64,000 bases of DNA from Candidatus Enterousia sp. (GTDB lineage: Bacteria > Pseudomonadota > Alphaproteobacteria > Rs-D84): assembly GCA_045546075.1 (NCBI GenBank), contig JAZQCF010000017.1:10254-74253 (forward strand), read 5' to 3'. The notes beneath the pieces are model-generated. The model ran no database searches. It saw only the letters and a program-made list of their open reading frames with translations, and was not told where the DNA came from. Numbering within the stretch: position 1 is the first letter of the stretch; every line of letters starts with the position of its first letter. Below, one piece after another: positions 19,427-23,739 of this stretch. The position numbers and the translations under genes are program-made.

Positions 19427-19452
19427 AAAAAACGCCCAATCGGGCGTTTTTT
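19427..19452. terminator. bidirectional Rho-independent terminator
   Basis: AAAAAA-CGCCC-AATC-GGGCG-TTTTTT between prfA (+) and the convergent 19451-19963 gene (-). Confidence 0.75.
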
Positions 19453-19963
19453 AATCCGGCAAATTCCACAGCAGGCAATTTTCGCTGGTTTCTGCCGCGC
19501 CATCCAGGTATCGAACACAGATTTTGTTTTTTTGCTTTGCGCTTATGCGGCTGTTCGAAAGTTTAAATGCCCGGTCAAGAACTTCAGCCGATACGATACT
19601 GTTTTTTATATCACTTTCGCCAAGTCCATGGAACAGTTCTGCATCATCGGCCATTTGTTGGACCATATACCCATCGGCCAATTTGGTCCCCCAAGCCTCA
19701 CTGGTGGGTCCAGTCCAACCATTGGTGCCGCCTTGGATAATATAACGTTTTGCAATAACGCCGTCTGTGTCTGTATCTGTAATGACGGCGGTAGGCATTG
19801 ACAGGTTAAATTGTCCGCCTGTGCCTCTTGGTGATATTTTGTCTTGTTTTGTTTCAACCCGGGTATCAACATAGTTTTGTGTGGTGATGGTCTGTGTATC
19901 TGCCAAAACTGAATTGATTGTGATTATTGATGCGATTGCACCAAGTAATAATTTTTTGCTCAT
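19451..19963 (-). CDS. small secreted protein, paralog family member (170 aa)
   Basis: ORF trimmed to MSKKLLLGAIASIITINSVLADT after AGAGGGAAAATATG. It shares the signal peptide, NYVDT and ENCLLWNL motifs with 23878-24381. Confidence 0.75.
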   Translation of the reverse strand: MSKKLLLGAIASIITINSVLADTQTITTQNYVDTRVETKQDKISPRGTGGQFNLSMPTAVITDTDTDGVIAKRYIIQGGTNGWTGPTSEAWGTKLADGYMVQQMADDAELFHGLGESDIKNSIVSAEVLDRAFKLSNSRISAKQKNKICVRYLDGAAETSENCLLWNLPD

Positions 19964-20095
19964 ATTTTCCCTCTTTCTGTTTCGTGTTTCGCTCGGCATA
20001 AAATATGCCTGCGCGCAAATTTGTGTTTTTGTTCGAACTTCGCTAACGCTCGTTCTTACATACAAATTTTGCTTGTTTGATTTTATGTCTATAAT

Positions 20096-20236
20096 GATAA
20101 CAAAAAAGGAACGTTTTTTGTGACCAGTCTAAAATGAATTTTTGTCAACTTGGGGGGTCGCAAGAATCCGCCATTTCTTATAATTTGAAAAACATCAAAA
20201 AAGCACTGGACAAAAACGTTCGTTTTTTGTGACCAG
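20096..20236 (-). promoter_or_regulatory. conserved 5' module of the secreted-paralog family, copy 2 (same orientation relative to its gene as copy 1)
   Basis: The outer palindromes lie at 20096-20127 and 20206-20236. The inner segment is near-identical to copy 1; TTGACA (20143-20148, minus strand) faces the gene and TATAAT (20179-20184, + strand) faces away. Confidence 0.7.
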
Positions 20237-20604
20237 TTTCGTGTGATTTCTGGTCAAAAAATGCCAAAATCTTGCACTTTTAGGCAAAAATATCAATTTT
20301 TGAAAAATTAAAAAATGTCAGTGAAAACATAGTGTTGGTTTGATTTGTTGAAGGTTTGCTTGATTTTCTGTGGGGTGGGGCGGCTTATTATGTTATTTGG
20401 GATGTTTTTGTGTAATTAGTGCTCGTTATAAATACAAAATGCGGCATTATGTATCTGGTAAGTGTTGGTGTTATTGGTGCGCGCCGCCATTTATACGGGT
20501 TTTGAATAATTTGTGTTAGTTTTTTGTTCTAGTAATTTGTTTTTACAGTATAAACGCATAATAAAAATTGGGTGGGCTTCGTATGGCGGGGCGGCGATAT
20601 ATAA

Positions 20605-20632
20605 AAGGCGCATAATGTATATTATGTATAGT
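20605..20632 (+). other. dif: XerC/XerD chromosome dimer resolution site (dif)
   Basis: The site reads AAGGCGCATAA-TGTATA-TTATGTATAGT; E. coli dif is GGTGCGCATAA-TGTATA-TTATGTTAAAT. Twenty consecutive nt (GCGCATAATGTATATTATGT) are identical, including the whole central hexamer. It lies in a 1.2-kb gene-free tract. Confidence 0.75.
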
Positions 20633-20667
20633 TATGTCGTGTGGGACACGACATAACTATACATAAT
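20621..20667. repeat. perfect 22-bp inverted repeat with a 3-nt loop, overlapping the dif XerD arm
   Basis: ATTATGTATAGTTATGTCGTGT-GGG-ACACGACATAACTATACATAAT. Confidence 0.9.
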
Positions 20668-20737
20668 ATGAACCCTAATAATCCATTAAGTATTGATATA
20701 ATCCTTATAATTTTGTGTGTTCTGGAAATTTGATTGC

Positions 20738-20765
20738 GTGGCGCATAATCCCATTTGTGCGTGGT
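20738..20765 (+). repeat. degenerate dif-like site (good XerC arm, poor XerD arm)
   Basis: GTGGCGCATAA-TCCCAT-TTGTGCGTGGT. Further XerC-arm-like motifs: TAAACGCATAA at 20551-20561, inverted TAATGCGCC at 20805-20813, and GGGTGCATAAG at 21056-21066. Confidence 0.45.
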
Positions 20766-21238
20766 CTGTTTTCTGTTGCCTTGTCGTTGTTTGTTGTGTG
20801 GCCCTAATGCGCCGCAGACATATAAATATATGCCAAATAAAATTTTGCTCGCTATTAGACGCGTGGACATCTAATAAATATGTGTTCGATGAAAATTTGT
20901 GCGTATTAGACTTTATTGGTCATCCCGTTGAAAAAGTTGGTGTGCGGCCAAAGAAATTTCGGTTTGTGCCTTGGTGGCAATTAAATGCCGTGGACTGGTG
21001 GTGTGCCTGCGGATATTTCGTTTTACAACGGGATGACGACTTTGATATGCGGAATGGGTGCATAAGTCCCGAAAATTTGTAAAAACCGCCCTATTCTGGC
21101 CCCGGAATTTTGAAAAAATGGCGGATTTCTGCGGCTTTGCGGCGGTTTTTGTGTCGAAAAAAGAAGATTTTTTGCCCCAACCCGTCCAAAAATGATATTT
21201 TTGCGCGAATTTTTGTTTGGTTTCAATTTATTTTGCGC

Positions 21239-21268
21239 TTGCGCCGAATTGCGCATGCGTGGTATAAT
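21239..21268 (+). promoter_or_regulatory. sigma70-like promoter with extended -10 (TTGCGC-N18-TGgTATAAT)
   Basis: TATAAT at 21263-21268 is preceded by TGG, and TTGCGC lies at 21239-21244. The promoter is 25 nt upstream of the proposed GTG start. Confidence 0.55.
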
Positions 21269-21292
21269 TTTTTCAAGAAAGGAAGTTTGTTG

Positions 21293-22366
21293 GTGGGATT
21301 GAATATTTCGTCTTTTGTGCGGGTCTTTGTGGTCGCCGTGTTCGGGGTGGTGTGTGCGTCGGGCGGTGCGTTTGCCGCGAATTGTAATCCCGGACAATAT
21401 TATGAATGCGGTGAAGACCCGTATGATAATTCGTGTACCGAATGTGAGTGTGTGTCTTGTCCGGCGGGACAAACCAGTGATGGTTCGGGCGAATTGTATT
21501 ATTGCCCAAATATATATCCTACATCGCCATATGGGGATAGTGGGTGCAGTGATATTTTGTGTTCCGCTGATTATGTCGATTGTCCGGCGGGTGTTGGTGC
21601 ACCGGGCCAAAGGTGTAAAGAATTGACCGATGCGTGCCCCAGTGGCAGTGGTTGCCATGAATATGAACTGTGCAATCTGGCCAATGGCGCACTTACGTAC
21701 GCGGTTACCGGTTCGTGTCATATTGAAGAAGTTTCTATGTGTCAACCCAATACTGTGTCGTGCAACACTTTTCCAATAATGACAACTTATGTGTATTATG
21801 CTGTAACGCAAAACGACCAGACGGGCAATGCCACATGGAATGGTTATAATTCTGCGTGGGATACGATAAATTGTAAATTAAACTCGATGAATAAAAGTGT
21901 TTCTACATTTACTGTGGGTGGTCAAACCGTACCTGTTCATTGTGATGATTTGAATGTCGTTGGTGTGGTTTCGGCCGCATATCAATTTTTCCCACGGACG
22001 GTTTTTGAACCAGTATATTATAATTTAACACGGTTCTATTGTGAAAAATGTCAGGCGGGTTATTTGCCGAACATCCAGTCTTCACCGAACGCGGGTGCGA
22101 ATCTGTTCCCCGAAGGGTATGATGGGGCATATGGTGTGTTGATGTGTGACGAACAGGTTCGTGCGCCGTATTATGCGCCGGGGTGCATGATACCGTACCC
22201 GTTGAATTCGTCATCTATGCCGGACGTATGTCGGGTGTCGTGTCCGGATCGAATGGAAACGATTGTTAATGGTGCGACCGATGACAGTTACTGTCTGCCC
22301 AAGGGTGCCCCGGTGTACGAAGATGATTCTGGTTCTTTCCGTTTGGGAACTGAAATGTGTAATTAA
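21293..22366 (+). CDS. secreted Cys-rich protein (GCC2/GCC3- or furin-repeat-like CxxCPxG modules)
   Basis: ORF 21110-22366 trimmed to the GTG at 21293, 7 nt after AAGGAAG and downstream of the promoter. It has a signal peptide (...VVAVFGVVCASGGAFA) and many Cys, for example CTECECVSCPAGQTSDG. Confidence 0.65.
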   Translation: MGLNISSFVRVFVVAVFGVVCASGGAFAANCNPGQYYECGEDPYDNSCTECECVSCPAGQTSDGSGELYYCPNIYPTSPYGDSGCSDILCSADYVDCPAGVGAPGQRCKELTDACPSGSGCHEYELCNLANGALTYAVTGSCHIEEVSMCQPNTVSCNTFPIMTTYVYYAVTQNDQTGNATWNGYNSAWDTINCKLNSMNKSVSTFTVGGQTVPVHCDDLNVVGVVSAAYQFFPRTVFEPVYYNLTRFYCEKCQAGYLPNIQSSPNAGANLFPEGYDGAYGVLMCDEQVRAPYYAPGCMIPYPLNSSSMPDVCRVSCPDRMETIVNGATDDSYCLPKGAPVYEDDSGSFRLGTEMCN

Positions 22367-22428: not shown

Positions 22429-23739
22429 TTATTTCGCCGTTGCCGGTTGGAATAATTCCGCCGGTTTTACCGCCTTTTCTTTTTGCTTAACGTGGGTCAG
22501 CATCGCATCCAAAGATTTGCGTTCAAAAATCATTCCGCGCAACATTGTTAATGCATTTTGATTCTTGTTATAGAATTCAAAAATCTGTTTCGGGTCTGGA
22601 TAGCGTGCGGCCTCGGCCCAGATGGCGTTTTGCAAATCGTCGCGCGTGACCTCGACCTTGTTGGCACTGCCCCACTCGGCCAAAATCAGGCCCAATTTTA
22701 CGCGACGTTCGGCCTCTTTGCGTTCTTTTTTCTCGTCAAATTTGCAATCGCCGTCGCATTTGCCATCACAGTGTGCGTGATGATGTTCGTGTTCGTTTTT
22801 CGCCATTTGTAATTCTTGGGCAACGACGACTTCGGGCAAATCTAATTTAACCTTGTCCGCCAAGATGTCCAATAATTCATTGCGCATTTCTTGCTGGGAC
22901 GCGGCGGCGTATTGTTCGTTCAATATATTGCGGACGTGTTCGCGTAATTTTTCGACCGTGTCAAAACCAATCGATTTTGCAAATTCATCATTCAATTCCG
23001 GCAAGATATGTTTGCGAACCTCGTGCAGGGTGATGGCAAAACGTGCCGCCCGGCCCGCCAGGTTTTCCGCATGATAATCTTTGGGGAACTTTACATTGAC
23101 ATCAAATTCATCGCCCGATTTGTGGCCGATAATTTGGTCTTCGAATCCCGGAATAAATGAACCAGAACCCAAAACCAAGTGATGCATTTTTGCCGCGCCA
23201 CCTTCGAATGCGTCTTTGCCAATGTATCCGGTAAAGTCAATGACCGCGGTATCGCCGTTTTCGGCCTTGTATTTCGCCGGTTGTTTTTCGGCGGTTGAAC
23301 GCGCACGGCGCAGGTTTTCGATTGCGGTGTCAACCTCGGCCTCGTCCAATTTGGTTGTCTTTTTTGTGACGGTGAATTTTTCCAAATCTATTTCCGGCAG
23401 TGTTGGCAAAATATCAAATTCCAACGTATATTCTGCATTCGACCCAATTTCCCATTTCCCCAGGTCTGCACGTGGTGCACCCGCAAGGCGAATTTTCTTT
23501 TCGGTTGCGTATTTTTCCAAATCGGCGTTCATCAATTTGTCGATTGCATCCGCCATGGCGTTTGCATTATATTTCTGGCGCAGGACGGACAGTGGCACGT
23601 GGCCCGCACGGAACCCCGGCATTTTGGCATCCGCCCCGTACTTAGTCAGTATTTCATCGGCGGCGGCCTGGATTTCATCGGCGGTCAAAACACCGGTTAC
23701 AGAATAATGTAAATCTTTGATTTTTTCTTTTTTAATCAT
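22429..23739 (-). CDS. tig: trigger factor
   Basis: ORF trimmed to MIKKEKIKDLHYSV.... It contains a PPIase (FKBP-type) middle domain (GDTAVIDFTGYIGKDAFEGG) and has typical length, apart from a His/Cys-rich insert in the C-terminal domain. Confidence 0.9.
   Translation of the reverse strand: MIKKEKIKDLHYSVTGVLTADEIQAAADEILTKYGADAKMPGFRAGHVPLSVLRQKYNANAMADAIDKLMNADLEKYATEKKIRLAGAPRADLGKWEIGSNAEYTLEFDILPTLPEIDLEKFTVTKKTTKLDEAEVDTAIENLRRARSTAEKQPAKYKAENGDTAVIDFTGYIGKDAFEGGAAKMHHLVLGSGSFIPGFEDQIIGHKSGDEFDVNVKFPKDYHAENLAGRAARFAITLHEVRKHILPELNDEFAKSIGFDTVEKLREHVRNILNEQYAAASQQEMRNELLDILADKVKLDLPEVVVAQELQMAKNEHEHHHAHCDGKCDGDCKFDEKKERKEAERRVKLGLILAEWGSANKVEVTRDDLQNAIWAEAARYPDPKQIFEFYNKNQNALTMLRGMIFERKSLDAMLTHVKQKEKAVKPAELFQPATAK

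Follow-up and report, generated by a model that had tools for sequence, protein, structure and literature searches.

The candidate dif site and its surroundings

The window, by which we mean the whole stretch of 64,000 nucleotides that was analysed, corresponds to positions 10254-74253 of contig C17. This contig is 94 kb long and belongs to an assembly of 25 contigs and 969,781 bases (0.97 Mb) with a completeness of 94%. At 20605-20632 the window contains a 28-mer that was originally predicted to be a near-canonical dif site. Around the 28-mer, about 1.2 kb of sequence has no long ORFs, in keeping with the gene-free tract described in that prediction, and this tract is flanked by divergent genes at 19451-20065 (minus strand) and 21110/21293-22366 (plus strand). 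The neighbours are hisS and prfA on the left, and tig and leuS on the right. Pfam agrees with the earlier placement of hisS and prfA on the plus strand and of tig on the minus strand. The left part of the intergenic tract (20081-20227) is occupied by a 147-nt multi-copy element, of which at least 15 copies with 85-90% identity are distributed over many contigs. The site and the palindrome overlapping it comprise the following features.

20605-20632, plus strand: candidate dif, the 28-mer AAGGCGCATAATGTATATTATGTATAGT, composed of AAGGCGCATAA-TGTATA-TTATGTATAGT
20605-20615, plus strand: predicted XerC-binding arm AAGGCGCATAA, identical to the E. coli XerC arm at 8 of 11 positions
20616-20621, plus strand: central region TGTATA, predicted place of strand exchange, the same hexamer as in E. 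coli dif
20622-20632, plus strand: predicted XerD-binding arm TTATGTATAGT, identical to the E. coli XerD arm at 8 of 11 positions
20619-20669, no strand assigned: perfect palindrome with 24-bp arms (20619-20642 and 20646-20669) and a GGG loop, 100% complementary in a repeat search
20656-20669, minus strand: inverted copy of ATA plus the XerD arm, reading ATATTATGTATAGT, 23 nt downstream and without an XerC arm

Aligned with E. coli dif (GGTGCGCATAATGTATATTATGTTAAAT), the 28-mer matches at 22 of 28 positions, including 8 of 11 in each arm and all 6 central bases. The unbroken identity extends over 20 bases (GCGCATAATGTATATTATGT), exactly as had been noted. The inner arm positions, CATAA/TTATG, are palindromic. 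Given the base composition of the genome itself, sites with at least 22 of 28 matches are expected by chance 0.02 times per genome (969,781 bases, both strands), and the exact 20-mer 4e-6 times in the whole genome. The 28-mer at 20605-20632 is the best match to E. coli dif in its genome, with 6 mismatches, followed by a runner-up with 8. No second copy of the 28-mer with 6 or fewer mismatches was found in the genome, nor was there the better dif match elsewhere that had been named as possible counter-evidence.

The site is conserved well beyond this genome. A 24-nt core was present in exactly one copy in all 24 genomes of the genus examined in a first sample, and it recurs with 2-3 changes in other families of the order. 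When up to 2 mismatches were allowed, a 22-nt core was detected in 268 of 301 genomes of the order, including 212 of the 223 high-quality ones, and nearly always as a single copy; a reversed-pattern control of the 22-nt core gave 0 matches in the same genomes. The closed relative (G321) also carries one copy. Within the genus, the XerD arm 11-mer is invariant and GCGCATAA of the XerC arm is invariant or nearly so, and the central hexamer reads TGTATA or TATATA in relatives. In the genome of the window, the XerD arm occurs in 2 exact copies, one in the candidate dif and one in the inverted copy. Alignment of the flanks stops about 4 nt to the left and about 3 nt to the right of the core. The gene order hisS-prfA-dif-leuS is kept in the relative G003, and prfA is also found to the left of the homologous site in another family. 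Many members of the genus share a G-rich stretch of the GGCGGGG or GGGGCG type, 10-30 nt left of the XerC arm (window 20571-20596; left flanks of L010, L014, L019, L020, L021, and L024), within flanks that are otherwise unalignable.

The palindrome includes the XerD arm and the final 3 nt of the central region, and its predicted DNA fold has an energy of -22.7 kcal/mol. One might regard the locus as a chance AT-rich palindrome, or as a regulatory or structural element without Xer function, such as a bidirectional terminator or a member of a repeat family. The region is indeed AT-rich and repeat-rich, with the 147-nt element 380 nt to the left, and the perfect 24-bp palindrome shares sequence with the site. 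Such an origin is countered by the chance expectation of 0.02 per genome and by the occurrence of the site as a single copy in 268 of 301 genomes, between flanks that defy alignment. Membership in a repeat family is contradicted by the interior of the palindrome, which is unique in the genome. We also rejected the terminator reading, as no T-run follows the stem, and promoter and terminator scans gave no excess over shuffled sequences. An Rfam search of 19900-21500 returned sub-threshold matches to microRNA precursors only, which are caused by the palindrome. Conservation and chance statistics have thus already refuted the explanation without Xer function, and we assign it a negligible probability.

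Xer machinery, polar octamers, and phage attachment

The original prediction called for a search for xerC, xerD, and ftsK elsewhere in the genome, and counterparts of all three were identified. The XerD-like protein (288 aa) scores 287 bits with TIGR02225 and 298 bits with NF001399, passing the cut-off of 279 of the latter, and the XerC-like protein (303 aa) scores 285 bits with TIGR02224. Both score under the NCBIfam equivalog cut-offs, so that which Xer protein is XerC and which is XerD is assigned by relative scores only. Close relatives of the XerD-like protein are encoded in MAGs from the guts of ruminants and other animals, which carry the label Candidatus Enterousia sp. or uncultured Alphaproteobacteria. 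FtsK (739 aa) contains alpha, motor, and gamma domains (PF01580, PF17854, and FtsK_gamma PF09397, the last with 72.8 bits). Besides the Xer pair, the genome encodes one phage-type integrase.

In the E. coli system, dif works at the point where the polarity that orients FtsK converges. KOPS-like octamers were sought in the relative G003, where 46,802 eligible octamers (one N allowed) were ranked on a 515-kb contig by their strand switch at the site. The first rank was taken by GGGCNGGG, with a strand ratio of 72:14 to the left of the site, 5:18 in the next 86 kb, and 0:4 beyond (p = 4e-8), and the second by GGGNGGGG. These two G-rich octamers, which we refer to as KOPS-like, are related to GGGCAGGG. 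Similar motifs are KOPS of E. coli (GGGNAGGG) and GGGCAGGG, which has been reported for Azospirillum. In G003, the cumulative maximum of the two octamers falls 239 nt from the site, whether it is computed for the contig or for the whole 945-kb genome. Since the octamers were picked in G003 with the site as breakpoint, their choice is circular for that genome; they were therefore tested in other genomes, and it is these replications that provide the support.

In the window, the octamers switch strand at the candidate dif, with plus:minus counts of 11:0 on the left and 0:6 on the right (Fisher p = 8e-5), which is the polarity switch that the original prediction had proposed to look for. Their positions are as follows.

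262, 2588, 4359, 4900, 10419, 12427, 14003, 14806, 15629, 18645, and 20373, plus strand: 11 KOPS-like octamers to the left of dif
20373-20380, plus strand: last plus-strand KOPS-like octamer before dif, GGGTGGGG
23049, 31259, 44426, 54468, 55958, and 61396, minus strand: 6 KOPS-like octamers to the right of dif
23049-23056, minus strand: first minus-strand KOPS-like octamer after dif

Over the whole of C17, the counts are 12:0 on the left and 2:9 on the right, and this is the sole contig of the assembly with such a switch. The octamers switch strand at the site in four relatives as well (G003, G013, G077, and G321). Among them, G077, which belongs to another genus and has a GC content of 37%, shows 15:0 on the left and 1:7 on the right, and in the closed genome G321 the cumulative peak of the octamers is 6 kb from the site. 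When G321 and G077 were scanned independently and without bias, GGGCAGGG-type octamers again came out at or near the top.

A second copy of the site is present in a few genomes. In G275 and G144, the two form direct repeats, separated by 4.37-4.39 kb, that enclose a Microviridae prophage. It encodes a major capsid protein (phrog_514, E = 4e-105), a replication initiator, and a DNA pilot protein, and no integrase gene was found inside either prophage.

L078 2036-6438 (G275:C32) and L079 (G144:C12): Microviridae prophage of about 4.4 kb between direct dif copies

The XerC arm is the chromosomal one in the left copy and a variant, AGGACGCATAC, in the right copy, which is followed by chromosomal sequence. 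The variant XerC arm of one copy is phage-contributed. Experiments on gokushovirus lysogeny at E. coli dif, which depends on XerC and XerD, have demonstrated the same layout (PMC7062461). The dif core had no matches in IMG/VR, and a free phage with a matching attP was not found there. The hairpin pattern gave 12 matches in IMG/VR, all without an upstream dif core, and these were taken as chance. An element without an integrase between two direct dif-like sites, which is the arrangement of an IMEX, occurs in G275 and G144 only; the window contains no IMEX because its genome has no second dif-like site.

These prophages raise another explanation, namely that the site is an attachment site or scar of an IMEX or of a CTX-phi-type ssDNA phage, with the hairpin as a leftover folded attP and the working dif near the skew switch. 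In CTX-phi integration, one junction consists of a dif-like site, a spacer, and an inverted XerD arm, which the present arrangement resembles. The absence of a GC-skew switch at the site, the variable, non-coding flanks, and the integration of microviruses at the site in relatives would also fit a scar. Against it, the lack of a second dif-like site in the genome and the one copy in the closed relative leave no other candidate dif, and no bracketed element in the window. Moreover, the position beside prfA is kept across families, and the KOPS-like polarity converges on the site genome-wide. The inverted copy lacks an XerC arm, so there is no complete folded attP, and a tblastn search detected no microvirus genes in the genome of the window. 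The attachment site of an IMEX is in any case the host dif by definition. Single-copy status and motif convergence therefore largely refute the attachment-site explanation, and we consider it very unlikely.

We conclude that window 20605-20632 is, with a probability of about 0.92, the chromosomal dif site of an Enterousia-type genome, as predicted from the sequence. The assignment is very secure, being based on the uniqueness of the site, its single-copy conservation in the order, the presence of XerC, XerD, and FtsK gamma, the convergence of KOPS-like octamers, and the attachment of microviruses in relatives. By analogy with E. coli and other bacteria, the left arm would be bound by XerC and the right arm by XerD. 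Once replication is complete, FtsK at the septum would read the oriented octamers GGGCNGGG and GGGNGGGG and pump DNA from both sides towards XerCD at dif. FtsK would then activate XerD, leading to a crossover in TGTATA that would resolve a dimer into two monomers. As an annotation the finding is routine, yet it locates the segregation terminus in a large group of uncultured gut Alphaproteobacteria with small genomes and shows where the integrase-less microviruses of the group attach. Less ordinary are the distance of about 10% between dif and the skew terminus and the arrays of inverted XerD half-sites, which occur on one side only.

Offset between dif and the GC-skew terminus

The window holds the convergence point of dif and KOPS-like octamers, and it does not hold a GC-skew switch. 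GC skew in the window is +0.129 to the left of dif and +0.060 to the right, and it stays positive along all 94 kb of C17, so the skew extremum expected near 20.6 kb was not observed. Gene orientation is likewise mixed on both sides of dif without a switch, and the strand bias of core genes, earlier taken as a sign of converging replichores, does not bear out that reading. Across the contigs of the assembly, GC content is 0.428 in C1, C4, and C10, 0.380 in C21, and about 0.45 in the others, the low-GC contigs having a weaker skew; these differences may reflect regional composition or some strain mixing within the bin.

The location of the skew switch was determined in relatives. In G003, whose two contigs were rebuilt into a genome of 945,057 bases, cumulative skew peaks at 478,283 and reaches its minimum close to the contig junction; dif, at 388,644, precedes the peak by 89.6 kb (9.5% of the genome). 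The closed circular relative G321 (OZ007020.1, 958,618 bases), sampled as 40 blocks of 20 kb, has positive skew from about 170-190 kb and negative skew from about 691-695 kb. Its dif is at 571,010, which leaves a gap of about 120 kb (about 12.7%). The replichores of G321 are divided about 53:47 when defined by skew and 41:59 when defined by dif. The skew also stays positive past dif for at least 100 kb in G013 and at least 70 kb in G077. In G035 and G051 of the sister family f3, the skew changes sign exactly at the homologous site. Kono et al. 2011 (PMC3025954) reported distances between dif and the skew shift point of 0-1.39% of the genome, outliers staying below 3%. A dif at or near the shift point, which is a usual correlate rather than a mechanistic requirement, was not observed here. 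Thus, the proposal that the window spans the replication terminus stands with respect to the convergence of dif and KOPS-like octamers; the GC-skew switch lies outside the window, 90-120 kb beyond dif in relatives. A distant skew switch had been named as grounds for abandoning the dif assignment. Because the other evidence supports dif, the distance found shows that the skew criterion fails for the Enterousia family and that the site is still dif.

To separate the replication component of the skew from the coding component in G003, we used the mean of plus- and minus-strand genes together with third codon positions. The replication component is +0.137 to the left of dif, +0.105 from dif to the skew maximum, and -0.106 beyond the maximum. 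Between dif and the maximum, genes are biased towards the plus strand (41 plus, 23 minus), so that gene strand tracks the skew and not dif. These values bear on a further explanation, in which dif marks the true replication terminus and the positive skew to its right is the leftover of a recent inversion or translocation, or a product of transcription and gene orientation. In line with this, the skew in the window is weaker to the right of dif (+0.06 versus +0.13), stretches of near-zero skew occur there, and the switch at dif in f3 makes coincidence of the two the ancestral state. However, the mean-of-strands and third-position skew stay positive up to the maximum and change sign only there, and gene strands follow the skew. 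A simple inversion as the cause of the offset is excluded, as the KOPS-like motifs would have flipped together with the skew and they are unflipped. The pattern is common to two genera about 10 GC points apart (the second represented by G077) and hence old, and it is the skew-defined replichores of the closed genome that are near balance. We therefore judge a coincidence of dif with the true replication terminus to be unlikely.

We favour the interpretation that dif and the meeting point of the forks are separate. The leading-strand composition signal runs 90-120 kb past dif; therefore, the segregation terminus and the replication terminus appear to be uncoupled in the Enterousia family, by about 10% of the chromosome. 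In the family ancestor, the replichores on the two sides of dif may have come to differ in length, a large deletion in the course of genome reduction being one possible cause. The forks would now meet opposite the origin, and skew and gene orientation would have re-equilibrated accordingly, with dif and its converging motifs held in place by selection. As to the origin, dnaA of G003 (C1:180,856) is deep in the positive-skew replichore, about 180 kb from the skew minimum; dnaA of the genome of the window is at C15:4114-4560. Because dnaA is well inside the positive-skew replichore, the origin was set by the skew minimum, and in this group it does not appear to lie beside dnaA.

Several independent assemblies from two genera, including a closed one, show the offset between dif and the skew maximum. 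If the uncoupling is true, the family offers a natural experiment that separates the two polarities. Should the forks meet at the skew maximum, KOPS polarity and the position of dif would be selected independently of the direction of replication, and skew-based calls of the "terminus" could be off by a tenth of the genome.

Inverted XerD half-sites and relation to known systems

The inverted copy of the XerD arm next to dif is not peculiar to this genome. The pattern of an XerD arm followed, after 12-42 nt, by its inverted copy was found in 87 of 241 genomes of the genus. The interiors of the 87 patterns are unrelated in sequence and mostly self-complementary. In the one alignable subfamily (six sequences), 95.5% of cells pair, and 4 of 23 pairs are changed on both sides. 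Some relatives carry arrays of 2-7 inverted half-sites, TATACATAATAT, with a period of 50-70 nt; these are always inverted and occur on the XerD side only, never on the XerC side. The arrays are located as follows.

L078 6433-6863 (G275): half-site array of 7 copies (Tandem Repeats Finder: period 67, 6.7 copies)
L012: half-site array of 6 copies
L009 and L010: half-site arrays of 4 copies each
L013 and L016: further loci with half-site arrays

The inverted copy lacks an XerC arm throughout, and in 11 genomes inspected no complement of the XerC arm was present 3' of it. Other families of the order do not have the inverted copy, and some genus members have decayed ones. A lone XerC-arm-like motif, GTGGCGCATAA, followed by TCCCAT and without an XerD arm, is located at window 20739-20749, about 70 nt to the right of the palindrome.

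Since the inverted copy has no XerC arm, it is neither a second dif nor a complete folded attP of the CTX type; the latter was rejected because pairing covers only ATA, the XerD arm, and the interior. XerD-specific sites (XDS) that unload SMC have been described in the terminus of Bacillus subtilis, as cited in PMC11840125. We searched for an SMC homologue with TIGR02168 (cut-off 567) and detected none in the genome of the window (G000), G003, G035, or G321, the best score being 32.5 bits in G321 and that of the window's own genome 19.5 bits. As no SMC was found even in the closed 958-kb genome, the order seems, as far as TIGR02168 can show, to be without canonical condensin. A role of the inverted half-sites in XDS-type unloading of SMC is unlikely, because no SMC is detectable.

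The inverted half-site beside dif is most likely an accessory element that binds XerD or forms a hairpin. With low confidence, we favour an XerD-binding accessory element that would act on FtsK arrest, on the supply of XerD, or on phage integration. Taking the two less ordinary features together, we tentatively propose a joint reading, which we hold to be possible and somewhat less probable than its converse. In its first part, the FtsK/KOPS/dif terminus would be stably uncoupled from fork meeting by about 10% of the chromosome, with the motifs selected on the lagging strand over 90-120 kb, that is, against the replication-driven composition bias and gene orientation. In its second part, the hairpin or array on the XerD side would be a selected new accessory element, for example a stop or loading pad for FtsK or XerD, or a device affecting phage integration at dif.

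Several known systems invite comparison. The prophages of G275 and G144 are like the gokushovirus and Microviridae prophages that integrate at dif via host XerCD (Kirchberger and Ochman 2020, PMC7062461; Krupovic and Forterre 2011, PMC3091885), in that an integrase-less genome of 4.4 kb lies between direct copies of the site. Here, however, the host is a gut alphaproteobacterium with a reduced genome rather than a member of the Enterobacteriaceae or Bacteroidetes, and the genome of the window itself is without such a prophage. The palindrome shares inverted XerD arms, a short spacer, and foldability with the folded single-stranded attP of CTX-phi, a forked hairpin with two inverted dif-like sites. 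In contrast to that attP, only the XerD arm and 3 central nt are duplicated, so the hairpin cannot present a complete Xer site, and the structure is part of the chromosome, where many species keep it at one locus.

With the XDS of the B. subtilis terminus, as far as they are described in the account of Karaboja et al. 2021 cited in PMC11840125, the half-sites have in common that lone XerD halves without an XerC arm occur in the dif region, forming arrays in relatives. According to the same account, XDS are dispersed over the terminus domain, whereas here the half-sites form a cluster no more than a few hundred bases from dif, in inverted orientation throughout and on one side. A further difference from the XDS so described is that TIGR02168 detected no SMC homologue in the genome of the window, the closed relative, or the sister family. 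One-sided half-site arrays in a lineage without detectable SMC are thus left unexplained by the only known role of orphan XerD sites.

The closest counterpart of the site as a whole is XerC/XerD-dif with FtsK/KOPS, as known from E. coli and from the dif sites of Proteobacteria (Kono et al. 2011, PMC3025954; reviewed in PMC5357621), with which it shares the 11-6-11 organisation, the central hexamer, and 22 of 28 positions. Also in common with the E. coli type are the one intergenic copy, the two Xer paralogues, the FtsK gamma domain, and converging octamers related to GGGCAGGG. It departs from the known XerCD/dif systems in two respects: dif is located 9.5-12.7% of the chromosome away from the skew shift point, compared with less than 3% for the published outliers, and about a third of the genus carries an inverted XerD-arm copy or array beside dif.
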